Assembly: GCA_009781755.1 (NCBI GenBank) | Contig: WQVD01000003.1 | Coordinates: forward strand, 53,348 to 117,347 | DNA: 64,000 nt | Direction: 5' to 3' | From: Defluviitaleaceae bacterium | GTDB lineage: Bacteria; Bacillota; Clostridia; Lachnospirales; WQUN01 | Shown here: piece after piece, positions 8,224 to 63,584 of the stretch | Layout of the letters: every line of letters starts with the position of its first letter | How positions within the stretch are numbered: the stretch's first letter is position 1 | Program-made: the position numbers and the translations under genes | The notes under the pieces: generated by a model | Database searches by the model: none | Seen by the model: the letters and a program-made list of their open reading frames with translations, nothing else | What the model was told of the DNA's origin: nothing

Positions 8224-8306
8224 GCCATGATTGCGTTGCGGCAGCACGAAAGGGGTAAAGGGGATTATTCCCCTTGCGGGTCCGGGCAGCGCCCGGGGTC
8301 TTAATC
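8224..8306 (-). repeat. REP/MITE-like element family 1, copy A
   Basis: On the plus strand it reads GCCATGATTG...GGGGTAAAGGGGATTATTCCCCTTGCGGGTCCGGGCAGCGCCCGGGGTCTTAATC. It lies 26 nt downstream of the oxidoreductase stop. The strand is given as co-oriented with that gene. Confidence 0.75.
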
Positions 8307-8331
8307 TTTTATCATTTATCTTCCCTCGCGC

Positions 8332-11266: not shown

Positions 11267-11818
11267 ATGAACAGTAAAAAATTTTGGGAAATAATCGGTG
11301 AAGCAAGGATGCAAGCTAGCGGTTGGGAGGAAATGATGGAGCCTCTTGTTAGCATGCTGGAGCAACTAGAAGAGGCAGAGATTTTTCATTGGCAACTTAT
11401 ATTTGAAGAGTACCAGCATTTATCCCGCAAAAATAAGCTTTGGGCAGCTGCTTATGTAATAAACGGCGGTTGTTCAGACGATGGCTTTGATTATTTCCGT
11501 GCTTGGCTGACAGCGCAAGGAAAAGAGATTTGCATTAAATCACTTTATGATCCGGAATCATTGGCAACTTTGGACATGGTTGAATATGCTGAATTTGAAG
11601 ATATTATGAGCGCTGCGTCTACCGCTTATTTCAAAAAACTTGGCATATCGCCGGATTATGACCGCTATTATAATGAGCATAGTAAATATTCATTGACCGA
11701 TGCGCAAAGAGATGAAATTGCAATTGAAATAAAATATGCGTCCGACATAGATACTGATTGGAAGGAAAATAATTTGAAGGAATGGTTGCCTAAACTTTGT
11801 GAAAAATATGCCTGGTAA
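11267..11818 (+). CDS. DUF4240 domain protein
   Basis: MNSKKFWEIIGEAR...CSDDGFDYFRAWLTAQGKE resembles DUF4240. A GGAGG SD is present. The gene is AT-richer than its neighbours. Confidence 0.7.
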   Translation: MNSKKFWEIIGEARMQASGWEEMMEPLVSMLEQLEEAEIFHWQLIFEEYQHLSRKNKLWAAAYVINGGCSDDGFDYFRAWLTAQGKEICIKSLYDPESLATLDMVEYAEFEDIMSAASTAYFKKLGISPDYDRYYNEHSKYSLTDAQRDEIAIEIKYASDIDTDWKENNLKEWLPKLCEKYAW

Positions 11819-11885
11819 TAACCTGCAGCACAAATGTTCGAACATGTCAAGTAAGGCATGACAATTGGCATCCTGTAAAATTACC

Positions 11886-12228
11886 GCACAACAAATGAAA
11901 GGCACTCTGTGTCGAATCAGCCGGCTAGAAGATGAAGACTTCGGTTTTTGTCCATTCCGCCGCGCCACTGCACTCATCAGTCCCCTGCATTTGTTGTGAT
12001 GTAATACTTGCAGCACCCGCAGTACCCGCCAATCCCGGGAAGCGAACACTCCACAGTGCACGGTGGTACGTTCATGTCGACAACTTCCTTCGGGCGCGGC
12101 ACAAAACCTCATGAGGTAAACTAAAACAAAGGTTATGTAAAACCCACATGCAACAAACCGGCAATACAACGGAAGCAAACGTTTCTGACTTGTATGGGCT
12201 GTGTTTAATGTGTGTGGGTTTTATTTTA
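11886..12228 (+). ncRNA. candidate structured ncRNA, paralogue 1 (unknown family)
   Basis: A -10 box TAAAAT lies at 11876-11881. 11887-11897 is perfectly complementary to 11988-11998. A UUCG hairpin lies at 11935-11948. The terminator pairs 12139-12148 with 12213-12222 and is followed by ATTTTATT. Conserved blocks are shared with 22828..23175 (-). No ORF is conserved between the copies. Confidence 0.6.
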
Positions 12229-12370
12229 TTCAATAAAAATAGTTAACAATTGGAAACCTTTACGAGCTTACCCAAAAATAACTGTATAATTTATATAGCA
12301 TTAAAGCAAAATGACTTTCAAGGGATGTAATGACGCAAACAATAAAATAATGCGTAGGGAGAGAAGCAAA

Positions 12371-15300
12371 ATGAAAAGTAAGATGAGCAAATTATTGGCA
12401 CTAGCTTTGGTAGCCGTACTGGCATTCAATGTATTATTAATCAACACGCATGCCATGTATGACTCGAATGGAGCGGATTATACCGCAAGCGAGCAAAGCA
12501 TAATGGAAGCTTACGATTCATACAGCGAAAGCGATATAAGCGAAATTGACTACCCGTACAGTGAAAGCGATATAACCGAAATTGACGACCCGTATAGCGA
12601 AAGAGACATAAACGAAATAGACGACCCATACAGCGAAGACAATGTAGTTGAAGTAGAAAACACTAACGAGCATGAAGCTTCATTAAACGATGAACCGGAA
12701 GAAATTGCCGACGCCGACGAAGAAGATGTTTTAACAAATATTTTCACGTTTGTTTTCCCGGAAGATGCATATGGCTATGATGTTCATTTTGTTGAAGGCA
12801 ATGACGGAGCATTTTGCTTGTTATATGGCGTAATTGCCATCGATATGCATGGCAACGAAATGAATGTGTTCGTGATAGATGACGGCGGCTTTGACATTCA
12901 TGCCCAATTTCCGGATAACGTCTTTATCGTTGTGTACGGTGCGGAATGCCTTGTTACCGGTGTTGTACAAACTGTAAGCAGGGTGATTGTTGTAACAATG
13001 GCTGTTACGGCATTAAACGACTTTGTATCGTTTTTCGGTACGGCGACTTGGAGTTTTAATAATAATATGTTGTATATCCACGAAGGCACGATTACTACCC
13101 ACTGGAGCATATGGTGCGATTCGATGCCTTGGTATGATATAAGGCATGATATATATGAAGTAGTAATAGACGGTCCTGTTGTTATCATAGATGCAGGCAA
13201 CGGTTTGTTTGCGAACTTGCCCAACGTCACATCATTTGTGGGTATGGAAAATATCGATGTTTCCGGTGCGGGGCATTTAATGGACTTTTTTGCCGGCGCA
13301 AGTAGCTTGGTGTTATTGGATGTACCAAGTTGGGGTTGGGATTTTAGCAATGTGTTCCGTGTGGATCGCATGTTTTACGGCGTAAGCAGTTTGGAATTTC
13401 TTGACTTATCCGATTGGGATACGAGCTACATGGATAGCATGGGTGGGATGTTTGAAAATGCAAGCAGCCTGCACACCCTGATAGCCCCCCGCTTGATTAT
13501 CGAACATCGAATATATGGTACTACGCCAACGTTTCCATGGATGTTTTATAATGCTAACAGCTTGGTTAATTTGGACGTTTCTGAATGGCAAGTAAGCGGC
13601 GGTTCATTTGATGGGTTTATATCTGTGTTTGAAAATGCAAGCAGCCTGACCGCGCTGGATTTATCCAGTTGGGTAACCACTGATATACGGATGCCCATAC
13701 AAGCATTCGCCAATATGACTGAACTACGTTCTTTGAACCTATCGACTTGGGACATGCGCAACATAGAGGATTTTTATGTAGATAGTTGGATTAGTGATAT
13801 GTTTTACAATTTACCGAATCTTCGTGAATTTATATTGGGGCAGTATTTTTCTTTTCCTGAATATATAGAGTTTGAGTGGGGATCCGGACCCTCGCCAAGC
13901 AATCACAATTTTGCCACCGTACCGCTTAATAACGAGACCTACACTGGTTATTGGACGTACATTGACCCCGCAACCAATCAACAAAGCGCACGCCAATTTA
14001 CCTATCAACAACTCATCGATTATCAAAACGCAACCAATCAAGTAAACCATTGGGTATGGCAAACGCATATGCCGCCTGCGCCCATTGTTATCGATGTAGA
14101 AGAAGACCGCGAAACCACGGTATCAAACCCACCGAGCGGCGGCTACACCATTTATGGCGATGACCCCAACGATATCGGCAACATTTATGTCACCTTTCCG
14201 CCGGGCACCCCTCCGGGTAATATCGAAGTAAATCTGCCAACAGACGACAACGGCGAAACGCTTCCCGGTTGGAGTTATATCATACCGCCAGTGGCAGATG
14301 GCGAAGATGTGGTTGTAATCATCACCCCGCCGGAAAATGAAACGCCATGGGAAGGCCCCGTAATCATCGATATCGAAGAAGACCGAGAAACCACGGTGTC
14401 AAACCCGCCCGATGGCGGTTACACCATCGAAGGCGATGGCTCCAACGATACCGGTAACATCTATGTAACCTTCCCGCCGGGCACCCCTCCGAGCGATATC
14501 GTTGTCAATCACCCCGATGATTGGACATATGAAATCACGACAGATGAAGACGGCAATGTCGTTGTTATCATCACGCCACCGGCCAACGGCGGCAACCAAC
14601 CCGGTGATGATTTTATCATCATTGACGTAGAAGAGGACCGCGAAACCATCGTAAGCAATCCCCCGGACGGCGGTTATACGATCGAAGGTGATGACCCCAA
14701 CGATACCGGTAACATTTATGTAACCTTCCCGCCGGGTACCCCCCCGGGCGATATCATCGTCAATCATCCCGATGATTGGACGTATGAAATCACGACAGAT
14801 GAAGACGGCAATGTAGTTGTTATCATCACGCCACCGGCAGGCGGCGGCAACAATAACGAGAATAACAATAGCGGAAACAACAATAACGAAAACAATGACA
14901 ACGAAAATAACAACAATGAAAACAACAACAACGGAAACAATAACAGCGGAAGCAACAACAATATAAACAATAGCAATGTAAGCAACAACAACGGAAGCAA
15001 CAATGTAAACAACAATGAAAACAACAATAATAGCGAAAGCACCGATGACCCTATTTACGAGGCGCCAACCGATAACACCAACGTGATTGGTAATGACAAT
15101 GTAGAAAACGATGATTATGTCAGTCCTCCGCAACAGGGTAGCGACAGCTCCAATGTTCCCCCGTTGCCCAGCATACCGGGTAACCAAATTATACAAGATG
15201 GCAACCGGTGGATTGAGCTTGACGAAATGGGTATTCCATTTGGTGAATGGCGTTGGGATGACGAAGCAGATATGTGGATATTCACGGCATTTGCTCCACC

Positions 15301-15442
15301 GTCTTTAAGCGCGGCAGTGGGAACCATGCCGCAAACCGGCGTTACACACAGCAATATGTTTTATGTAATGGGGTTATTAATTTCCATCATCGCAGCAGGT
15401 GGTTTGTATGTTTTGCAACGCAAACTGAAGCAAAAAGCATAA
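12371..15442 (+). CDS. BspA-type leucine-rich-repeat cell-surface protein with a sortase-like C-terminal sorting signal
   Basis: The ATG at 12371 follows AGGGAGAG. There is a signal peptide (MKSKMSKLLALALVAVLAFNVLL). Acidic 13-aa tandem repeats (DPYSESDI.EID) follow. The LRR/DUF285-like units read MF...SSL..LDLS.WDTS. There are three 85-92-aa modules and an Asn-rich tract. The C-terminus is MPQTG plus a hydrophobic helix plus RKLKQKA. Confidence 0.85.
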   Translation: MKSKMSKLLALALVAVLAFNVLLINTHAMYDSNGADYTASEQSIMEAYDSYSESDISEIDYPYSESDITEIDDPYSERDINEIDDPYSEDNVVEVENTNEHEASLNDEPEEIADADEEDVLTNIFTFVFPEDAYGYDVHFVEGNDGAFCLLYGVIAIDMHGNEMNVFVIDDGGFDIHAQFPDNVFIVVYGAECLVTGVVQTVSRVIVVTMAVTALNDFVSFFGTATWSFNNNMLYIHEGTITTHWSIWCDSMPWYDIRHDIYEVVIDGPVVIIDAGNGLFANLPNVTSFVGMENIDVSGAGHLMDFFAGASSLVLLDVPSWGWDFSNVFRVDRMFYGVSSLEFLDLSDWDTSYMDSMGGMFENASSLHTLIAPRLIIEHRIYGTTPTFPWMFYNANSLVNLDVSEWQVSGGSFDGFISVFENASSLTALDLSSWVTTDIRMPIQAFANMTELRSLNLSTWDMRNIEDFYVDSWISDMFYNLPNLREFILGQYFSFPEYIEFEWGSGPSPSNHNFATVPLNNETYTGYWTYIDPATNQQSARQFTYQQLIDYQNATNQVNHWVWQTHMPPAPIVIDVEEDRETTVSNPPSGGYTIYGDDPNDIGNIYVTFPPGTPPGNIEVNLPTDDNGETLPGWSYIIPPVADGEDVVVIITPPENETPWEGPVIIDIEEDRETTVSNPPDGGYTIEGDGSNDTGNIYVTFPPGTPPSDIVVNHPDDWTYEITTDEDGNVVVIITPPANGGNQPGDDFIIIDVEEDRETIVSNPPDGGYTIEGDDPNDTGNIYVTFPPGTPPGDIIVNHPDDWTYEITTDEDGNVVVIITPPAGGGNNNENNNSGNNNNENNDNENNNNENNNNGNNNSGSNNNINNSNVSNNNGSNNVNNNENNNNSESTDDPIYEAPTDNTNVIGNDNVENDDYVSPPQQGSDSSNVPPLPSIPGNQIIQDGNRWIELDEMGIPFGEWRWDDEADMWIFTAFAPPSLSAAVGTMPQTGVTHSNMFYVMGLLISIIAAGGLYVLQRKLKQKA
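14084..14845 (+). repeat. three tandem ~255-275-bp coding repeats inside the LRR protein
   Basis: Units start at about 14084, 14360 and 14615. Each encodes I(I/V)D(V/I)EEDRET.VSNPP.GGYTI.GD..ND.GNIYVTFPPGTPP..I.VN...VVVIITPP. Units 2 and 3 are nearly identical. Confidence 0.85.
14849..15033 (+). repeat. AAC/AAT-rich low-complexity tract (poly-Asn linker)
   Basis: Encodes NNNENNNSGNNNNENNDNENNNNENNNNGNNNSGSNNNINNSNVSNNNGSNNVNNNENNNN. Confidence 0.85.
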
Positions 15443-17367: not shown

Positions 17368-17389
17368 GCCATACTCCTCTTCCGGTGAG

Positions 17390-17456
17390 TAAATTGCGAA
17401 ACGCACCACCCGCAATTTGCGAGCGGGGTAATTCCGCGAAGCGGAATTTCACTCAA
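17390..17456 (+). repeat. hairpin-repeat family 2, single unit in the ruvA-ruvB spacer
   Basis: TAAATTGCGAAACGCACCACCCGCAATTTGCGAGCGGGGTAATTCCGCGAAGCGGAATTTCACTCAA. It forms two hairpins (17391-17418 and 17430-17448). It is near-identical to 19768..19835. Confidence 0.8.
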
Positions 17457-19703: not shown

Positions 19704-19835
19704 TTGCGACGCGATCCGCACGTTACAAGTTAATAAATTGCGAAGCGCACCACCCATTACAAGTTAATAAATTGCGAAGCGTACCACCCGCAATTTATTA
19801 ACGGGGCAATTCCGCTTTAGCGGAATTTTACTCAA
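19701..19835 (+). repeat. hairpin-repeat family 2, three tandem ~34-nt units plus the terminal hairpin
   Basis: The units are 19701-19733, 19734-19767 and 19768-19801 (TAAATTGCGAAGCG.ACCACCC...). They are followed by CGGGGCAATTCCGCTTTAGCGGAATTTTACTCAA. Confidence 0.8.
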
Positions 19836-20886: not shown

Positions 20887-21124
20887 GCATGCGCATAGGG
20901 CAATGCGATTGCTTGCTGTGCGGATTTTGGCAGTTTGCGATGCGCGCTCGTTAAGCACTTGCGTTAGTCAACTTTTTGAATCCCTGCACTATGGTCAGTG
21001 CAGGGATTTTTGTTGTGTGAGCAGGGAGTGAAAAAGATTGCCGAACGCCAAGTGCTAAACTCCCACGCATCGCAAACTGCCAAAATCCGCAAGGCTGCGC
21101 AATCACATTGCCCTACGCGCATGC
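20887..21124. repeat. ~240-bp long-arm imperfect palindrome enclosing a terminator
   Basis: The left arm is about 20887-20965 and the right arm about 21040-21124. They are reverse complements with only scattered mismatches, for example GCATGCGCATAGGGCAATGCGATTGC...GCGGATTTTGGCAGTTTGCGATGCG. Confidence 0.8.
20979..21012 (+). terminator. intrinsic terminator after the binding-protein gene
   Basis: ATCCCTGCACT-ATGGTC-AGTGCAGGGAT followed by TTTTTG. Confidence 0.8.
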
Positions 21125-21291
21125 TGCCACACGACAGCGGGGCGAAAGATTAGGTGGATTAGTGCGGGTGGGTTGTAGGTAATGCACTGTTTTGACCGAC
21201 TGTGTACGAATAAAGACCACTTATTAAATTGCGCTGGAAGGGGGAATATATATTTTTTATAATGTGATTAGATGGATTGGGAGGTGATGTG

Positions 21292-21732
21292 TTGAAGGTT
21301 GAAATTAATATTGACGCCGGTTTTGGTGAAACAAGGGTGGTGATTACGGCGAATAAAATGACGGAGGAGGTGAACGAGCTTGTTCGCAGGATATCGGAAT
21401 ATGCGCCGTCGGTATTGGTTGGGTTTAAGAATGATCATGCTGTGATGCTTGATTGCGGGAAGGTGATTCGATTTTATGCTGCCAATCAAAAGGTGTACGC
21501 AGTAACGGAAGATACCGAGTACACCCTACGCTTGCGGCTTTATGAACTTGAGCAGCGATTGGATTCCACTGTATTTGTGCGCATATCCAATTCGGAAATT
21601 GTTAATTTGAAAGAAATTAAGGGATTTGATTTGAGTTTTGCGGGCACCATTTGCGTGCAATTTTGCAATGGGTCGGCTTCATATGTATCGCGGCGTTATG
21701 TCGCCAAAATTAAACGAATATTAGGAATGTGA
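21292..21732 (+). CDS. stand-alone LytTR-domain transcriptional regulator (no receiver domain)
   Basis: GGGAGG lies at 21279-21284. The start is TTG 21292, with GTG 21289 and TTG 21277 as alternatives. The C-terminal LytTR-like sequence reads FVRISNSEIVNLKEIKGFD...YVSRRY. Confidence 0.75.
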   Translation: MKVEINIDAGFGETRVVITANKMTEEVNELVRRISEYAPSVLVGFKNDHAVMLDCGKVIRFYAANQKVYAVTEDTEYTLRLRLYELEQRLDSTVFVRISNSEIVNLKEIKGFDLSFAGTICVQFCNGSASYVSRRYVAKIKRILGM

Positions 21733-21742
21733 GGGAATGATT

Positions 21743-22192
21743 ATGAAGAAAAAAGCAATTTTGCGCGGGATGTTGGGTTTTCCTTTGGGTATTGCGTTGT
21801 GCCATGTGATAACCATTGTAATATCAATAGCTATTGGCGATGGATATCACTTGTCGGCAATCCCCGAATTGGTTTATGACTTTAACAACGAATTGAATGC
21901 AGTTATATTCCAAACTGCCTTATATGGCGTACTGGGTGCTTCTTTTTCGTCGGCTTCTGTTATATGGGAAGTGGAAAATTGGAGTATCGTCAAGCAAACG
22001 GGAATATACTTTATGATTACGGCTGCTACGATGCTTCCCGTTGCTTATTTTGGGCATTGGATGGATCGTTCGGTTTTTGGTTTTGTGATTTATTTCGTTG
22101 TTTTCGTGGCAATTTTTATCTTCATGTGGCTGGTTCAATATGCGGTTTGGAAAAATAAAATCAAGAAGATAAATAAGGGCTTTATCCGTTGA
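21743..22192 (+). CDS. DUF3021-like small membrane protein (putative LytTR-regulator partner)
   Basis: The ATG at 21743 lies 7 nt after GAGGGA, and ATG 21737 is also in frame. It has four TM helices. It sits immediately downstream of the LytTR gene. Confidence 0.7.
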   Translation: MKKKAILRGMLGFPLGIALCHVITIVISIAIGDGYHLSAIPELVYDFNNELNAVIFQTALYGVLGASFSSASVIWEVENWSIVKQTGIYFMITAATMLPVAYFGHWMDRSVFGFVIYFVVFVAIFIFMWLVQYAVWKNKIKKINKGFIR

Positions 22193-22242
22193 AATTATTT
22201 TGATAGAATATGTATATAATTATATTTCATGAGGTGATTGGC

Positions 22243-22512
22243 GTGTTAATAAAACCTTCTACCGTGCTACGCAACGAATACAACAGTATTTCTACATTGT
22301 GCAAAGAAAAGCGCGAACCTGTATTTCTTACCAAAAATGGAGAAGGTGATTTGGTGCTTATGAGTATCGAAACTTATAAATACCGCGAAGAAATGCTGGA
22401 CTTGCGCGAAAAATTACTTTTTGCGGAAGCAAATAGGCTATCCGGTGCCAAAACATACACCACTGCGGAAGTAGGCGATAGGCTGCGGGGGTTGATTGAT
22501 GGAAACCTATGA
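22243..22512 (+). CDS. type II antitoxin, Phd/YefM family
   Basis: The GTG at 22243 follows GAGGTGA. The sequence is ...STVLRNEYNSISTLCKEKREPVFLTKNGEGDLVLMSIETY. It overlaps the toxin gene by 14 nt. Confidence 0.8.
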   Translation: MLIKPSTVLRNEYNSISTLCKEKREPVFLTKNGEGDLVLMSIETYKYREEMLDLREKLLFAEANRLSGAKTYTTAEVGDRLRGLIDGNL

Positions 22513-22819
22513 TGTCCGGTTTTTGCAAGAGGCATTGGATGATTTAGAAGAAATTATTTTGTATATCGCGCAAGACAGCCGCGCTGCCGCACTCCGTATG
22601 CATGGCAAAATTATGGAAAAAGCCAACGACTTGTCGGTATTCCCAAAACGCGGGCGGTTAGTCCCTGACAAAAAAATGTCTGAGGCAGGATATCGTATAT
22701 TGGGGATTAAACCTTATTTGGTGTTTTATCGCATAATCGGGCGCGATGTTTTTATTTATCGTGTGTTACATGGAGCTGCGAACTACCCGCTCTTGTATCA
22801 ACAAATGACGCAAGCGTAA
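22499..22819 (+). CDS. type II toxin, RelE/ParE family
   Basis: 106 aa. The sequence reads ...DLEEIILYIAQDS...FPKRGR...YRILGIKPYLVFYRI....VFIYRVLHG. Confidence 0.8.
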   Translation: METYDVRFLQEALDDLEEIILYIAQDSRAAALRMHGKIMEKANDLSVFPKRGRLVPDKKMSEAGYRILGIKPYLVFYRIIGRDVFIYRVLHGAANYPLLYQQMTQA

Positions 22820-22827
22820 AGGAAGGT

Positions 22828-23175
22828 AATTAAATAACCCCACAACACGACAAACAAGCCGATGCATGAAAAAGAGTTAACCTTTTCTTGCATCGCCGGT
22901 TTGCCGTATTGTGGGGTTTTGGTTTGTTGCAATTTGGTGTTGCCTCATGAGGGCTTGTGCCGTACCGTTGGAAGGTTGACGTCGTGGGTTTGCTACCGTG
23001 CACTGTAGCTTGCCCGCCTTCTTTAGGTTTGGCGGTGTTGCGGGGTGTTGCAGATGTTGCATACAACCGAAGCAGGGAACTGATGAGCGCAGAGGCGCGG
23101 TGGAGTGGACACACTTCCGAAGAAGTGCATCTTCTTATCCGGCCATTCGACGCAGAGTGCCTTTCGACTGTTGTG
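22828..23175 (-). ncRNA. candidate structured ncRNA, paralogue 2 (unknown family)
   Basis: An extended -10 TGATATAAT lies on the minus strand at 23189-23181. The UUCG hairpin is at 23127-23112. The long terminator hairpin pairs 22918-22909 with 22845-22836 and is followed by ATTTAATT. Blocks are shared with 11886..12228. Confidence 0.6.
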
Positions 23176-23470
23176 TGGTGATTATATCAGGGTGAATTGA
23201 CCATTTTTAATTTGACATGTGCGCGTTTTTATGATTCGAAGTCATTTGTGCCAAATAACCAAAATATTTCGCCCACGTTTTCTTTCAAGTTGGCCGTCAT
23301 TTTTATACGGTGCCGGTTAATATCCAATTCCGTTGTTGACAAAGAGGTAAGCAAAGCAATCCCGCCCCAAGTCATCCCTCAAGGCTTGCAACTCACCTGA
23401 GGGGTGGTTTGTGTGAACACACACTCGGTTTAATATAAATTGCAATGTGATGGCTTTGTTTTAATTTACC

Positions 23471-23788
23471 TTATGTGTCTATTGCTTGAAGTAGTTTGAT
23501 CAAATCATTATTGGATAATTTGCCAATGGGGGTAGTTTGTATTGTTGATATCGGCAACTCAAGGATTTTGCCAATGTCTATATAGGATTGTTTTGCCAAG
23601 CCTGCTTGTGCCCAGTCGTCAATAGTTATGTAACGGGATCGTATGGCCGCGCTTTTGTTATCATATTGCGATGTAATTTGAAAAACTGCGACTTCATTTT
23701 TACATGCGGACAACACCAAAATAGGGCGACGTTTTCCGTCGCCACCCCATGACACATAGGCAATGTGTAAGTGATATGGATGCATCAT
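23471..23788 (-). CDS. PemK/MazF-like type II toxin
   Basis: 105 aa. The sequence is WGGDGKRRPILVLS...VAVFQITSQ...SYIDIGKILELPISTI....IGKLSNNDLIKLL. The start overlaps the antitoxin stop (ATGA). Confidence 0.65.
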   Translation of the reverse strand: MMHPYHLHIAYVSWGGDGKRRPILVLSACKNEVAVFQITSQYDNKSAAIRSRYITIDDWAQAGLAKQSYIDIGKILELPISTIQTTPIGKLSNNDLIKLLQAIDT

Positions 23789-24090
23789 CCATTCACCACC
23801 CAGTCGTAAATTTCGGGGTGTTCATCTTTGTTTACGGTGGCATATCCGTTTTCATCGGCTTCCAATTTAATTCTTGGGATATTGCGCTTGGCAATCGCTG
23901 CCGTGAGTTGTTCTTCCGGTGCAAGTGATACCACGGGTTGAAAAGGTAAGCGGCGTTCGGCGATGATTTGTCGATAAAACATGTCTATGGCTGTGGTTTG
24001 GTCAATTCCCATACGGTTCAAAAGCATAGTGGCGGTTTCTTTCACTGTTGTGTCAATTTTAACATTTACATTTGATTTGGTTGCCAACAT
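23785..24090 (-). CDS. RelB/DinJ family type II antitoxin
   Basis: The ATG at 24090 follows GAGGTG. The sequence is NVNVKIDTTVKETATMLLNRMGIDQTTAIDMFYRQIIAERRLPF. Confidence 0.7.
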   Translation of the reverse strand: MLATKSNVNVKIDTTVKETATMLLNRMGIDQTTAIDMFYRQIIAERRLPFQPVVSLAPEEQLTAAIAKRNIPRIKLEADENGYATVNKDEHPEIYDWVVNG

Positions 24091-24147
24091 CAAAATCACC
24101 TCGTTAACATTGTACGATATTATAACGCCGATGTACAGATGATGTCG

Positions 24148-25998
24148 TTACGCCACAGTATAATATTGCGCCTGTGCGTGCCACAATTCGTGATACTTGC
24201 CTGTGGTTTCGGCCACCAATGCATCATGACCGCCCCGTTGTATAAGTCGGCCTTCATGGAACACGGCGATGTCGTTACAGAAGCGGCAGGAGGACAAACG
24301 GTGCGAGATGAAGACGGCGGTTTTGGTGCCTGCGATTTCGTTCATTTTGCTGTAGACTTCGGATTCGGCGATGGGGTCCAGGGCGGCGGTGGGTTCGTCC
24401 AAGATGAGGAAGGGCGCGTCTTTGTACAGAGCGCGGGCCAAGGCGATTTTTTGCGCTTCGCCGCCGGATACTTCTACGCCTTCTTCTTCGAAGTTTTTGT
24501 ACAGACAGGTGTTTAAGTGCTTGGGTAGGGTGGCCAAACGGTCGGCGAAGCCGGTTTTGATTAGGCATTCGGCGGCTTTGGCGTGGTCGGGAGTGGCGGA
24601 TGCAGCGACGTTTTCTCCCAATGGGAAGGATAAGAGTTGGAAGTCTTGAAACACGACGGAGAAGATGTCCATGTATTGCGCGTAGTCGTACTTACGGATG
24701 TCGAAGCCGTTCAAGAGGATTTCACCTTCGGTGGGGTCGTATAAGCGGCACAGGAGTTTGATGAAAGTGGTTTTGCCGCTGCCGTTTTGACCCACTACGG
24801 CCAGACGTTGGCCTACGTTAAATTTGAGGGATACGTTGCGCAGGGCGTAGTCGTCGGACGTGGGGTATTTGAAACTGACGTTGCGGAATTCGATTTCGTA
24901 TTTGCCGTCGCTGCGTTTTTCGGTGGTGAGAGTGCCTTGGTACATGTTGTTGGGGGTGTCGAGGAAGTCGAAGATTTTTTGCATGTAGGGGGCGTTGTTT
25001 TTCATGGTGCCTAGGTGGGATACGAGTGCTGCGATGCCGCCGGATAATGCGGTGATCGCGCCGATGTATTGCATGATATTGCCTACGCCGAACGCGCCGC
25101 CCCATGCCTTCAAGCATACAAAGAGGTAAATCGAAATGGTAAAAATATGGAAAATGACGGTGGAGGCGACGTGCAACGCGCCCATCGGCCCGCGTGCCCA
25201 CCGCGCGATTTGCGACGTAGGGCCAAAGGAGTCGTACTTTTCGTCCTGCGCATAGGATTTACACACAATGTCTTGGCGGAACATGCGTATATCCTTGGCG
25301 CGGCGCACATCGTACCCGAAGAACCCGGCGAACCCGAATATGCGGTTACCCATGGTGGCACCATCGGCATGACGCGCCCAGTAGGACGATGCCTTGTTGC
25401 CCACCATCGGAGACAGGACGGTAACGCCTAACAGCACCGCGATCAAACCAACGACGAAGAGCGGATGGTTCAAAACTTCCACGTGACCGGCGCCTTGCGC
25501 CACGGGTTGGGTGAACAGCGATACGGTCAGCGCCACCGCTCCGCCGATGGTGAAGAACGATTTAACCAGCGGTTCTAACCCCCAAATTACTTTGCTGTGC
25601 CCCCAACCGCTCCAGTTGTGGGATTGGCGTATTTGTGAAAGGTTGTCGTGGGTTTTGGCGTCGTCCACATCCACAAAGTCCATGGAAAATAATTTGTCGG
25701 CTTCAATTTTGCGTATCATGTACCAATAATTGGCACTGTGGTAATTTTTCCAACGCGCCAACGCCGCGATGATTAACGCCAACACCGCGGCCGTAATCAA
25801 CGCCGCCAGCACAAGGAAGCGTAAGCGGTCTACATCGCGCGTGCCTGCGATTTCATTTAATATCTGCGCGGACAAGTAGATGCCTATAAAGGGTGCCAAC
25901 GCCGAAACCGCCGCGTGTACCGCAATGGATACCAACAAAAGCGGCTGCCGCGCCCACCAAAGTTTGTACGCGCGTTGGGTGAGTTTTAAATAATTCAT
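24148..25998 (-). CDS. ABC exporter, fused permease/ATPase (multidrug/peptide type), subunit 2
   Basis: 616 aa. It has a six-TM domain followed by Walker A GQNGSGKTT, signature VSGGEAQK and Walker B LILDEPTAALD. The start overlaps the upstream stop (ATGA). Confidence 0.9.
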   Translation of the reverse strand: MNYLKLTQRAYKLWWARQPLLLVSIAVHAAVSALAPFIGIYLSAQILNEIAGTRDVDRLRFLVLAALITAAVLALIIAALARWKNYHSANYWYMIRKIEADKLFSMDFVDVDDAKTHDNLSQIRQSHNWSGWGHSKVIWGLEPLVKSFFTIGGAVALTVSLFTQPVAQGAGHVEVLNHPLFVVGLIAVLLGVTVLSPMVGNKASSYWARHADGATMGNRIFGFAGFFGYDVRRAKDIRMFRQDIVCKSYAQDEKYDSFGPTSQIARWARGPMGALHVASTVIFHIFTISIYLFVCLKAWGGAFGVGNIMQYIGAITALSGGIAALVSHLGTMKNNAPYMQKIFDFLDTPNNMYQGTLTTEKRSDGKYEIEFRNVSFKYPTSDDYALRNVSLKFNVGQRLAVVGQNGSGKTTFIKLLCRLYDPTEGEILLNGFDIRKYDYAQYMDIFSVVFQDFQLLSFPLGENVAASATPDHAKAAECLIKTGFADRLATLPKHLNTCLYKNFEEEGVEVSGGEAQKIALARALYKDAPFLILDEPTAALDPIAESEVYSKMNEIAGTKTAVFISHRLSSCRFCNDIAVFHEGRLIQRGGHDALVAETTGKYHELWHAQAQYYTVA

Positions 25999-27851
25999 GA
26001 CGCGCTCCCTTCTGCATGAGCAACGAGATCGTCGCGGTAGTAGTGGCTTTGGATTTCAAAGAGTTCGGCGTATTTTTGTCCGTTGCGTATCAATTGGTCG
26101 TGTGTGCCTTCTTCGGTTATGCTGCCGCCGTCTATGAGGATGATGCGGTCACAAAAACGCGTACTGGCCAACCGGTGCGAAATATACACCGACGTGCGCC
26201 CGTCGGAAAATTCGTTGTATTTGCTGTACATATCTGCCTCGGCGATGGGGTCGAGCGCGGCGGTGGGTTCGTCCAAGATTAGCAATGGAGCTTGCTTGTA
26301 CAGTGCGCGTGCCAGCATGAGGCGTTGCGTTTCCCCGCCGGATAATTCTACGCCTTCGTTAAATACCGTTTTGGTCACATATGTGTCAAAACCCTGCGGA
26401 TAGGATTCGATTTTTTCCAGCAGTCCGGCATCATTGGCGCATGCACGTAACCGCGCTTCATCGGGCGCACAGATGGATTGTGTAATATTCTCCGTAATCG
26501 TCGTGGGTAAAATCGAAAAATCTTGGAACACAGACGAAAAATGCTTGTAATAATCGCGCCGATTGTATTGGCGGATGTCTTGGCCGTTGAGCAGCACATG
26601 CCCCGCCGTGGGGTCGTACAAACCGCAGATGAGCTTGACCAGCGTGGTTTTGCCCGCGCCGTTGAGGCCTACGATGGCCAATTTCTCGCCGGGTTGGAGG
26701 GTCAAGTTGATGCCCGTGAGGGTATCTTTTTCCGCACCGGGGTATCGAAAAGAGACGTTGTCCAGCTTGATTTCGTACCGTGCGTTGGTTTCGGGTATCA
26801 GCGGCAAGCCATCTTCAAATTTGAACGGCTCATCCCACTCAATGAACTCACGCATGTTGGAAAGATCCAGACTTTGCCGGTGCAGCGTTTCAACATTGGA
26901 CAAGATGCCACCCACCCAGCCCGAAAATCCGCCCACCGCCGCAAAGAAAAGCAAAAACGCCGCGGCAGAAAGCCCATCGTTTAGCACCAAATAAATCAGA
27001 TACGCATACGCTATCCCGTTGCGTGCCAATGTTAACACCGCGTCAATGATATCGCCCCAAATATACACACGCTCGCGTCGCGCGATGAAGGATTGGTACA
27101 AGCGCATCCAACTGTCGTGTACATCGGTGAGCCATTGCCGCATACCGAAGATGCGCACGTCCTTGGCCAGCGTGTACTTATTGGATTCGCGCGTGATGTA
27201 GTTCATGCGGCGGGAGTATTCGGCTTCTACATCGCGGTGTCGGTAGCCCCAACCATTGAAATGACGGCTAAATAAGAAGCCTACCACGCCCGTCACCAGC
27301 ACAATCGCCACAATCCACCATTGCAATGACGCCAATAACACCAAATAAATCACAAAGCCTGCGCTATTGGTCATCAAGTCGGTCAACGTATCCCAAATCG
27401 CTTCTGCGGCGGATGAATTGGAATTGACCGTCACCGATGCGGTATCTTGCCGTTTTTGTACGTCCTGATCTTCCACCAACGGAAAGGACATTTGACAAAT
27501 TTTGTCGTGTATGCGGCTTACAATGACCGACCGCACCGCCACCCGCCCGAAAAGCGTATTTCTGCCGATGTACGTGTTCAACGCACCCACCAGCAGCATG
27601 CCACCGGTAAACAGCAGGATAACCGTCACCAAACGCTCCAGCGGTGCCACGGCTTCCACTTCCGCAATTATTGCCGGCGCGATGAACAGGCCTAACAGGC
27701 TGCTAACAACGGCCAACATTGCAAGCAATACACACAAAACCAATACGCTGCGGTTTCTGCCCCATGCGGTGCGTATCATGTAAGCTGTGTTTTGGAACAA
27801 ATTGTAACGCGGTTTTTTGCTGATGGATTTGTACGGGCTGGCAGGCCACAT
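25995..27851 (-). CDS. ABC exporter, fused permease/ATPase, subunit 1
   Basis: The preferred ATG is at 27851 (MWPASPYKSISKKPRYNLF), downstream of the 27893-27922 terminator. Walker A is GLNGAGKTT, signature LSGGETQR, Walker B LILDEPTAALD. Confidence 0.85.
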   Translation of the reverse strand: MWPASPYKSISKKPRYNLFQNTAYMIRTAWGRNRSVLVLCVLLAMLAVVSSLLGLFIAPAIIAEVEAVAPLERLVTVILLFTGGMLLVGALNTYIGRNTLFGRVAVRSVIVSRIHDKICQMSFPLVEDQDVQKRQDTASVTVNSNSSAAEAIWDTLTDLMTNSAGFVIYLVLLASLQWWIVAIVLVTGVVGFLFSRHFNGWGYRHRDVEAEYSRRMNYITRESNKYTLAKDVRIFGMRQWLTDVHDSWMRLYQSFIARRERVYIWGDIIDAVLTLARNGIAYAYLIYLVLNDGLSAAAFLLFFAAVGGFSGWVGGILSNVETLHRQSLDLSNMREFIEWDEPFKFEDGLPLIPETNARYEIKLDNVSFRYPGAEKDTLTGINLTLQPGEKLAIVGLNGAGKTTLVKLICGLYDPTAGHVLLNGQDIRQYNRRDYYKHFSSVFQDFSILPTTITENITQSICAPDEARLRACANDAGLLEKIESYPQGFDTYVTKTVFNEGVELSGGETQRLMLARALYKQAPLLILDEPTAALDPIAEADMYSKYNEFSDGRTSVYISHRLASTRFCDRIILIDGGSITEEGTHDQLIRNGQKYAELFEIQSHYYRDDLVAHAEGSAS

Positions 27852-27892
27852 TTGAATTCCGCCTTTCCGGTGGATTTGTTGCGATGATAGCA

Positions 27893-27922
27893 TAAAAAAA
27901 TCCCCGATATTTTTTCGGGGAT
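27893..27922 (-). terminator. intrinsic terminator after the histidine kinase gene
   Basis: On the minus strand: ATCCCCGA-AAAAATA-TCGGGGAT followed by TTTTTTT. Confidence 0.8.
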
Positions 27923-27963
27923 GAATGGTTGGATTTTGGGGGTGAAGTGTTATTTGGGTGACA

Positions 27964-28623
27964 TTACTGCGGCAGCAATATTTCCGTTGTGAATACGCCA
28001 TCCTCGCTGGCACGGCGGATGTAGCCGCTGTACCGTGCTACGATGTGATCGATGCGTGCCAAACCGAAGCCGTGGCCGTCGCCTTTGCTGCTGGCATAGC
28101 GTCCGTTTTGTATCTTGCCTGCGGAAGTGGCGTTGGTGACGGAAATGTAGAGTTGCGTATTTTTCATTTCCATGAAGATGCGGATGATGCGCTCACTTGG
28201 GGGGAGGGAGGTGCTGGCTTCTACGGCGTTGTCCAATAAGTTGCCCAAGATGATGCACAGGTCGATTTGCGAAGTGGTGAGTTCGACGGCTACATTTACG
28301 TCGGCAATGATGGTGATTTCCTTGGCGGCGGCTAACGATATTTTGCTGTTGAGTATGGCATCGGCCATTTTGTTGCCCGTTTTGAGGGTGTTTTCCACCG
28401 CGATGAGATCGGCGTCCAGTGCGTCGATGTAACGGGTGATGGCCTCGCGGTCGTCGTTTTGTGCGAGGGCTTTGAGCGTGGCCAAGTGGTTGCGGTAATC
28501 GTGCCGCCAACCGCGCATCTGGTTGTACATATTTTCTACTTCTATGGCATGGATGGCTAGCACGCGTTGTTGATATGCGGCGATGCGGCGGTCAATCCAC
28601 TTGGCAAGCAACCGCGCTATCAT
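27964..28623 (-). CDS. AgrC/HPK10-type GHKL histidine kinase core without any transmembrane sensor domain
   Basis: 219 aa. The H-box is GWRHDYRNHL, the N-box ILGNLLDNAVEA and the G-box GDGHGFGLARI. There is no hydrophobic segment. The start overlaps the regulator stop (ATGA). Confidence 0.8.
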   Translation of the reverse strand: MIARLLAKWIDRRIAAYQQRVLAIHAIEVENMYNQMRGWRHDYRNHLATLKALAQNDDREAITRYIDALDADLIAVENTLKTGNKMADAILNSKISLAAAKEITIIADVNVAVELTTSQIDLCIILGNLLDNAVEASTSLPPSERIIRIFMEMKNTQLYISVTNATSAGKIQNGRYASSKGDGHGFGLARIDHIVARYSGYIRRASEDGVFTTEILLPQ

Positions 28624-39695: not shown

Positions 39696-39857
39696 AAAGA
39701 TCAAAACCCCGGGCGCTGCCCGGACCCGCGAGGGAACGCGTCCCCTCGACCCCGCTGAGCTTCGCGAGGCTCTGCGTTTGGCTAGTGCCGGTTATTTTAA
39801 TGTTACACAACGCTTGGCTGTTCAATCTTTCAGTTGGTCGCAATTTGCGACCAACTG
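39696..39857 (+). repeat. REP/MITE-like element family 1, copy B (full length with terminal hairpin)
   Basis: AAAACCCCGGGCGCTGCCCGGACCCGCGAGGGAACGCGTCCCCTCGACCCCGC...CTTCGCGAGG...CAGTTGGTCGCAATTTGCGACCAACTG. It starts 10 nt after the GH8 stop. Confidence 0.8.
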
Positions 39858-63406: not shown

Positions 63407-63529
63407 ACCGGTCGCAATTTGCGACCGGTCGAAATCTGCACCGGCCACCCGTCAAGCCACGCGAAGCACAACGCGGGTCGAGGGGAACGCTTCCCCTCGC
63501 GGGTCTGGGCAGCGCCCAGGGGCTTGACC
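63407..63529 (-). repeat. REP/MITE-like element family 1, copy F (closest to consensus)
   Basis: On the plus strand: ACCGGTCGCAATTTGCGACCGGT-CGAAATCTGCACCGGCCACCCGTCAAGCCACGCGAAGCACAACGCGGGTCGAGGGGAACGCTTCCCCTCGCGGGTCTGGGCAGCGCCCAGGGGCTTGACC. It lies about 55 nt after the ppk stop. Confidence 0.8.
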
Positions 63530-63584
63530 TTGTTTTTGTTTGGGTTCTTGTCTATGTTTGGGTTCGCATTTTTGTTTCGCGACC

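Follow-up and report, generated by a model that had tools for sequence, protein, structure and literature searches.

Multi-copy, regulated small RNA (sRNA) families are known from several Firmicutes, including the csRNAs of streptococci, LhrC of Listeria and VR-RNA of Clostridium perfringens; csRNAs and LhrC measure 90-150 nt and have no large conserved domains, and VR-RNA is ~390 nt long. New classes of large structured bacterial RNA are rare, and earlier ones led to riboswitches, ribozymes and, lately, RNA-only nanocages. The large, ornate bacterial RNAs OLE, ROOL and GOLLD form RNA-only homo-oligomers, and palindromes that switch from GGCC to GAUC or AGCU backed the intermolecular, symmetric kissing loops found by cryo-electron microscopy in OLE and GOLLD (Kretsch et al. 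2025, PMC12286853). The raiA motif, from Clostridia and other Firmicutes, is a structured and abundant non-coding RNA that still lacks a known function (PMC12968392). Here we describe two inverted, diverged copies of one unit in a 64,000-nt stretch of contig WQVD01000003.1 from a Defluviitaleaceae bacterium (GCA_009781755.1), hereafter the window. Most likely the two copies are paralogous genes of an undescribed, independently transcribed family of structured non-coding RNA of ~340-430 nt, and we are highly confident that they represent a real structured RNA gene family absent from Rfam. An initial annotation of the window had proposed such a paralogous promoter-to-terminator non-coding unit, and homologues found elsewhere, which covary strongly, support this proposal.

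Copy 1 (~11830-12243, + strand) and copy 2 (~23232-22818, - strand) were found where they had been annotated, both in the sequence itself and by pairwise alignment and a repeat search of the window, which returned the inverted pair 11876-11934 / 23128-23186. Aligned end to end, from ~55 nt upstream of the -10 box to the T-tract after the long hairpin, the two copies are identical at 251 of 391 aligned positions (64%), and this alignment contains every shared block listed initially. The annotated palindrome CCTCATGAGG and the long hairpin with its T-tract are likewise present in both. Homology reaches slightly past the coordinates first noted and starts at ~11829 in copy 1 and ~23251 in copy 2 with a conserved GCACAAATG. 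No third copy was found in the window using nhmmer with a two-sequence profile, and an extension of the window (L038) held no further homologue. The identical RNA sequence is present at the same locus in one ENA assembly and one Logan assembly. The G+C content of the window is 51%.

The unit had initially been placed in no known RNA class, and a cmscan search of the whole window against Rfam 15 agrees with this, as none of the 4227 covariance models (including OLE, ROOL, GOLLD, HEARO, raiA, 6S, tmRNA, RNase P, SRP, T-box, riboswitches and group I/II introns) gave a match at the gathering score. The same was true of the seven homologues described below. With permissive thresholds (E<=10 for both copies, E<=0.1 for the seven homologous loci), only sub-threshold chance matches of microRNA or small nucleolar RNA type were obtained on the long hairpin.

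Metagenomes of the Joint Genome Institute (JGI) were searched with a pattern that required CGGCACAANNCCTCATGAGG (blocks E+F), which returned 25 loci; nhmmer confirmed seven of these, and the other 18 were chance matches. All seven homologues come from a single JGI metagenome, Ga0123355, where they lie on different contigs and each in a different gene context. Four are full length (L034, L013, L021 and L035) and three are cut by a contig end (L027, L036 and L020). Together with the two window copies they make up a set of nine sequences, six of them complete, with a core identity of 67-93%. The invariance of the CGGCACAANNCCTCATGAGG block among the homologues is uninformative, because the search pattern required it. 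The loci L014, L017, L019, L022 and L030, from JGI Ga01827xx metagenomes, are chance CGGCACAANNCCTCATGAGG matches that score identically in nhmmer and probably have in common a single conserved sequence, likely a protein-coding gene, that is unrelated to the RNA.

The nine sequences were aligned by hand toward structure, giving 221 columns, and the alignment was fixed by passing it through MAFFT with N for gaps, with all 221 columns kept. Across 58 proposed base pairs, 95.8% of the cells were paired, compared with 88.6% in shuffles and 37-45% when the pairing was slid by 1-3 columns. Both sides had changed in 22 of the 58 pairs, compared with 9.2 ± 2.1 in shuffles (none of 500 reached 22) and 3-6 after sliding. 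Every helix but P4a carries at least one compensatory pair, such as A-U to G-C in P1c (L035), G-C to A-U in P3 (L035 and L027), and C-G to U-A in P1d of copy 1, at two positions that had first been marked as variable in blocks 2 and 4. P4c, P4d and P4e contribute two to three compensatory pairs each. These results demonstrate a conserved secondary structure backed by compensatory substitutions. They also bear on three pairings suggested by the initial annotation. The complementarity of 11887-11897 with 11988-11998 is real and forms helix P1. The UUCG-capped hairpin (11931-11952 in copy 1, 23108-23131 in copy 2) is real as well and corresponds to P2, in which seven of ten pairs have changed on both sides among the nine homologues. 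A pairing of GCAC..UGUG near the 5' end with CACAGUGC stood only in part: a 4-bp GCAC/GUGC contact is possible, whereas at the two variable pairs of the UGUG/CACA half, 9 of 12 cells are unpaired. As the UGUG half is broken and the 5' bases sit in covariation-supported helices instead, this 5' pseudoknot is unsupported.

Helix cells contain 18 G-U and 6 A-C combinations, and every complete copy has a -10 box upstream and a U-tract downstream on the same strand. Because G-U cells exceed A-C cells, the strand bearing these two signals is the selected one. Such selection on one RNA strand argues against a DNA-level element, which might be a miniature inverted-repeat transposable element (MITE) or a recombination site. 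This explanation, or that of a small gene, for instance a type I toxin mRNA from which a short hydrophobic peptide is made, would account for several copies in variable contexts next to toxin-antitoxin (TA) modules and for short hydrophobic frames that overlap the terminator's G/U-rich 3' arm. It is largely refuted, and we regard it as extremely improbable. The six complete copies have no consistent terminal inverted repeats or target-site duplications, the only candidates being short, AT-rich chance matches that differ between copies. No relatives were found among plasmids and phages by blastn, and patterns for block A (GAAAGGCACTCTGNGTCGAA), blocks D+E and blocks E+F had no match in viral contigs; the block A pattern also had none in metagenomes, and the block C pattern (CTGCNCTCATCAGTNCCCTGC) had one viral and nine genome matches, all due to chance according to nhmmer. 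The hydrophobic frames differ in their start, have no ribosome-binding site and pass the terminator without a stop codon. As initially annotated, no open reading frame is common to both copies: the frames differ in start and reading frame, and the indels between the copies are not multiples of three. Conserved or codon-periodic frames were not found in the family either, in which variable insertions of 0-42 nt interrupt the unit, and in copy 2 and L027 a UAG interrupts the one frame that otherwise stays open across the constant-length domain 3. A phmmer comparison of the longest copy 1 frame (60 aa) with 1.84 billion proteins gave only two low-complexity matches.

Each of the six complete copies has a TATAAT or TAAAAT box and, upstream of it, CATGTCAA-N5-6-CATGRCCA-like repeats as well as GCACAAAYG. 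The conserved upstream CATGNCAA pair probably binds a dedicated regulator. At the other end, an A-rich spacer leads to an imperfect hairpin of 35-40 bp and a U-rich tail in nine of nine copies (-35 to -57 kcal/mol). This hairpin shows compensatory changes inside subgroups, including three such pairs between copy 2 and its closest homologue, L027. We propose that the RNA would be started by its own promoter, consisting of the -10 box and the upstream CATGNCAA pair, and ended by this unusually long hairpin terminator. The same hairpin could also belong to a riboswitch-like cis leader or attenuator, with the A/C-rich repeats of the linker as alternative partners for its G/U-rich 3' arm. A co-oriented gene does lie within ~150 nt downstream in five or six of the nine copies, and the repeats resemble the 5' arm of the terminator and can pair with its 3' arm over 8-11 bp in copy 2 and L021. 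However, the alternative pairing is not kept in copy 1, the two strands of P1 covary with each other, and three of the nine copies (copy 2, L021 and L034) converge on the next gene, an arrangement that argues against a leader. The downstream genes are also functionally unrelated. We consider a cis leader very unlikely. Neighbours across the nine loci include DUF4240/DUF285 genes, TA modules, HisRS and helix-turn-helix genes, a surface protein and a branched-chain amino acid permease, and no neighbouring gene is constant among them. Any cellular role of the RNA would probably be exercised in trans, and not as the leader of an adjacent gene.

Domain 1 begins ~7 nt past the -10 box. It consists of the helices P1 (ACAACAAACG / CGUUGGUUGU), P1b, P1c, P1d and P3 (GGCCGG / CCGcGCC) and of the variable, capped P2, and compensatory pairs were found in P1, P1c, P1d, P3 and P2. 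The internal loops of this domain are invariant in sequence (CGAAU; AGAAGA opposite UCCACUCC; UCAUC), and in L021 a 42-nt hairpin is inserted into the UCAUC loop. The linker that follows comprises 2-4 degenerate 9-nt units (GYARNAYCC) per homologue, with extra hairpins inserted in L013, L021 and L035. Exact CAACA was inconsistent as a repeated binding motif, being enriched in only three of the nine copies.

Repeated, single-stranded C-rich units of this kind, several paralogues per genome or sample and, in every complete copy, a separate promoter whose upstream direct repeats are conserved would also be expected of multi-copy base-pairing sRNAs under one dedicated transcription factor. Firmicute sRNAs often use C-rich seeds. 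Seeds for G-rich or ribosome-binding regions of target mRNAs would here be provided by the C-rich 9-nt repeats (..ACCC..) or by CCUC/CAU in the palindrome, and the hairpin domains would contribute stability only. We find this rather unlikely: with 340-430 nt, two elaborate, conserved domains and invariant internal loops, the RNA greatly exceeds the size required of a seed-type sRNA; its repeat units are degenerate; no target was predictable; and the palindrome-preserving covariation described below is left unexplained. A related possibility is an RNA that sequesters or scaffolds a protein, following the logic of CsrB, RsmZ and CrcZ, with the tandem A/C-rich 9-mers (2-4 copies) and the internal loops of domain 1 as binding sites. 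A tandem motif of variable copy number in an unstructured linker fits well with this, as do the invariant loops AGAAGA / UCCACUCC and CGAAU, which base pairing does not explain. Nevertheless, the motif is loose, the genes beside the copies include no candidate for such a protein, and we know of no bacterial RNA-binding protein with GYARNAYCC-type specificity, so that we consider it unlikely. A/C-rich stretches like the linker units are also present at the 5' end and in the 5' arm of the terminator. The base-pairing and protein-sponge explanations are not exclusive, and the former is partly compatible with the self-association that we favour.

Domain 3 is a long hairpin of the form GCC..CC..GGAAG-GGGC-CCAC-[AGUGCACG]-GUGG-GCCC-[AC GACGUC AA]-CUUCC..GG..GGC, with one palindromic hexamer in the terminal loop and another in a bulge on the 3' side. 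The loop hexamer GUGCAC is constant in eight sequences; in L036 its hairpin is replaced by a longer one, the 7-nt loop of which is again palindromic (GCUAGC). The bulge hexamer occupies an identical position throughout, always two bases past P4d and two before P4c, and its sequence is GUCGAC in copy 1, GCUAGC in L020 and GACGUC in the other seven, so that the two paralogues of one genome differ in it. Its pair 179-182 is A-U in seven sequences, C-G in one and U-A in one, and the adjacent pair 180-181 is C-G in eight and U-A in one; three compensatory pair changes, confined to two variant sequences, thus keep the hexamer palindromic. A helix between this bulge palindrome and the 5' GYGUCGAAU block was considered and rejected, as it requires a 3-nt register shift between copy 1 and the others and competes with the covarying P1d. 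Further downstream, the family shares the palindrome block ACAA-N1-N2-CCUCAUGAGG-Y. The closing pair of this 10-nt palindrome (207-219) is A-U in five sequences and G-C in four and switches inside two subgroups. The invariance of CCUCAUGAGG itself among the seven homologues reflects ascertainment, since the palindrome was part of the search pattern. Coordinates of all features in the two window copies are given in Table 1.

Table 1. Positions in the window of the features of the two RNA gene copies.
Feature	Copy	Position	Strand	Details
Upstream conserved region	1	11829..11864	+	GCACAAATG ... CATGTCAA-N5-CATGACAA; conserved in full-length homologues; CATGTCAA 11843-11850
-10 box, TAAAAT	1	11876..11881	+	predicted start ~11888; inferred from alignment of six complete copies
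Domain 1, irregular long hairpin	1	11888..11997	+	P1 11888-97/11988-97; P3 11919-24/11960-66; UUCG-capped P2 11931-52
Linker of A/C-rich 9-nt repeats, single-stranded	1	11998..12027	+	UGUAAUACUU GCAGCACCC GCAGUACCC
Domain 3, long hairpin P4a-e	1	12028..12100	+	loop GUGCAC 12056-61; 3'-bulge GUCGAC 12076-81; P4b-e covary
10-nt palindrome A-A-CCUCAUGAGG-U, covarying closing pair	1	12105..12117	+	
~40-bp imperfect hairpin, then UUUUAUUUUAUU; presumed intrinsic terminator	1	12137..12231	+	RNAfold -42.8 kcal/mol
Upstream conserved region	2	23197..23251	-	GCACAAATG 23243-51, CATGTCAA 23212-19, AATGGTCAA 23197-205
Extended -10 box, TGATATAAT	2	23181..23189	-	promoter scan 10/12 positions, TG present; predicted start ~23174
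Domain 1	2	23063..23174	-	P1 23165-74/23063-72; P3 23139-44/23094-100; P2 23108-31
Linker of A/C-rich 9-nt repeats	2	23034..23062	-	UGCAACAUCU GCAACACCCC GCAACACC
Domain 3	2	22959..23033	-	loop GUGCAC 22998-23003; bulge GACGUC 22978-83
Palindrome G-C-CCUCAUGAGG-C with closing pair	2	22942..22954	-	
~40-bp terminator-like hairpin (22836-22918) and U/A-rich tail	2	22826..22918	-	RNAfold -54.7 kcal/mol; abuts convergent ParE 3' end

Adjacent bases cannot pair within one chain, yet the bulge pair 180-181 covaries, a pattern that was used to argue for intermolecular kissing loops in OLE and GOLLD (PMC12286853) and may point to pairing between molecules here. The mechanism that we prefer, and hold tentatively, is that the RNA self-associates via its palindromes. 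The predicted fold combines the 5' irregular long hairpin and its invariant internal loops, the flexible, single-stranded linker and, in the 3' part, the second long hairpin, which presents its 6-nt palindromes in the terminal loop and the 3' bulge and is followed by the 10-nt palindrome. The palindromic loop and bulge could then pair with the same elements of a second molecule by symmetric kissing contacts, and these contacts might build a homodimer or a bigger assembly made of RNA only. The working surface would then consist of the C/A-rich linker and the conserved internal loops, which would remain exposed. Linker and internal loops are candidate interaction surfaces for a protein or a G-rich RNA. 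Paralogues with different bulge hexamers would form separate homomers. The full version of this model is an RNA-only particle, a symmetric dimer or larger, that is held together by loop, bulge and 10-nt palindromes and in which the bulge hexamer acts as a self-recognition code that sorts paralogues expressed in one cell into distinct homomeric assemblies; we regard it as possible, although doubtful. If true, a specificity switch of a kind undescribed for natural RNA quaternary structures would be set by the bulge hexamer, with GUCGAC in copy 1, GACGUC in copy 2 and GCUAGC elsewhere.

Several observations weigh against the family assignment or against self-association. The comparison includes only nine sequences from two sources, seven of them ascertained via CGGCACAANNCCTCATGAGG, and the small sample was aligned by hand toward structure. 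No copy was found in 185,579 species genomes (one each), searched with one 19-base block, or in ~190 kb from other Defluviitaleaceae metagenome-assembled genomes (MAGs). Whole-molecule folding energy does not separate sense from antisense, a two-hexamer scan found no full sigma-70 site in copy 1, and a simple terminator scan made no call there. Counted per sequence, 6-nt palindromes are no more frequent than in shuffles, so the case for self-pairing rests on position and covariation in very few sequences; this palindrome covariation comes from just two variant sequences and the one replaced hairpin in L036. Pairings within one molecule are also possible. GCAC in columns 21-24 could pair with GUGC of the loop, and CUCAU of the domain 1 internal loop with AUGAG of the 10-nt palindrome, with 97.5% of the cells paired; no double change could be observed for the latter, because AUGAG was fixed by the search pattern.

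In the window, copy 1 lies between a DUF4240 gene (11267-11818, +) and the gene of a 1043-aa DUF285 surface protein (12311-15442, +). The latter contains tandem domain repeats of 255-276 nt and a run of 15-nt repeats that encodes an Asn-rich low-complexity tract (14081-15055). The DUF4240 protein and RuvB of the window match, with full identity, proteins listed by NCBI under ‘MAG: Defluviitaleaceae bacterium’. Copy 2 is located downstream of a RelB/MazF-like pair (23471-24099, -) and is convergent with a Phd/ParE pair (22210-22819, +), and is thereby flanked on both sides by type II TA modules. Copy 2 and L027 both adjoin a Phd/ParE module (L027:1209-1785), and the two modules are only 27% and 37% identical and have opposite orientation. 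The two appear to have been inserted independently next to the RNA's 3' end, and TA cassettes may land preferentially on this side of the RNA gene.

Other repeats were observed in the window. The genes ruvA and ruvB are situated between the two RNA copies, and a 53-nt direct repeat with 83% identity (17385-17437 and 19763-19815, +) has one copy in the spacer that separates ruvA from ruvB, ahead of the genes for an ABC ATPase and permease, and the other just upstream of an NMT1-like binding-protein gene. Its hairpin, AAAUUGCG ... CGCAAUUU, is capped by a 12-nt loop, AARCGYACCACC, that is conserved; the stem extension differs between the copies and stays paired, and the repeat has no match in Rfam. 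The hairpin is possibly a small cis element belonging to this transporter operon. A G+C-rich element of ~50-58 nt (8252-8309, 39696-39753 and 63483-63531; 83-84% identical, both orientations, with the palindromes GGGGAnnnnTCCCC and CCGGGCAGCGCCCGG) looks like a REP-like (repetitive extragenic palindrome) or terminator-like intergenic repeat. A 43-nt inverted repeat (20919-20961 / 21049-21091; 88% complementary, 87-nt spacer) precedes genes for a LytTR regulator and a DUF3021 membrane protein (21277-22192). Finally, a 147-nt direct repeat with 79% identity (24337-24483 and 26211-26357) was found inside adjacent ABC-transporter genes (24148-25998 and 25995-28013), which are probably a tandem paralogous exporter pair.

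The carriers of the homologues appear to be Defluviitaleaceae, as the L013 copy adjoins a HisRS gene whose product shares 83%, 75% and 71% identity with proteins of ‘Defluviitaleaceae bacterium’ MAGs. Their habitat is probably the termite gut: 67 Defluviitaleaceae MAGs have been obtained from the guts of higher termites (Herve et al. 2020), the related IMG sets that were matched come from gut compartments of Labiotermes and Cornitermes, and Ga0123355 probably belongs to that metagenome series, judging from its accession number. No homologue was found downstream of hisS in other Defluviitaleaceae, no further RNA copy next to DUF4240 homologues, and none within ±10 kb of ruvAB in four relatives. 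The spacer downstream of hisS in other Defluviitaleaceae holds a tRNA-gene-like sequence, as judged by eye. As far as could be seen, the family is narrow, being found only in this MAG and one metagenome.

The family would provide a first RNA marker and, through its conserved promoter element, a regulatory lead for uncultured termite-gut Defluviitaleaceae, the biology of which is almost unknown (PMC7024585). It is compact (~350 nt), with clear domain boundaries, several paralogues in one genome and a covariation of adjacent palindrome bases as in OLE and GOLLD, and these properties make it an inexpensive candidate on which natural RNA self-assembly could be tested directly. With it one could also ask whether paralogous RNAs keep their assemblies apart by palindrome identity.

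Compared with known systems, the family is new in that no catalogued RNA family matches it, and its likeness to the ornate self-assembling bacterial RNAs suggests that it may belong to that kind. It resembles OLE, ROOL and GOLLD in being a stand-alone, highly structured bacterial non-coding RNA of unknown or poorly known function; it shares with OLE and GOLLD the switching of a palindrome at one site, here the bulge with GACGUC, GUCGAC or GCUAGC, and with ROOL and GOLLD a poorly conserved, disordered linker between structured parts. In contrast to these RNAs, with which it has no sequence or structure homology according to cmscan and Rfam 15, it is half their size or less, multi-copy per genome and found only in one uncultured Defluviitaleaceae lineage, and its oligomerization is a proposal here. 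The loop of domain 3 is similar to the kissing-loop hairpins of the retroviral dimerization initiation site (DIS) of HIV-1 and to other palindromic hairpins of this type, which have a short stem and a loop with six central self-complementary bases flanked by purines. The loop A-GUGCAC-G carries what we take to be the same hexamer as one natural HIV-1 DIS variant. Origin and context are unrelated, though, and the loop has 8 nt instead of 9 nt; moreover, the stem covaries here and the loop is constant, and the role of the loop is suggested by one replaced hairpin (L036). The raiA motif differs in having an Rfam model, which found no match here, and in being a single-copy RNA of ~200 nt present in >2700 species. 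With csRNAs, LhrC and VR-RNA, to which no homology was detected, the family shares several paralogues, an own promoter with conserved repeats for a dedicated regulator, an own terminator and unpaired C-rich motifs.

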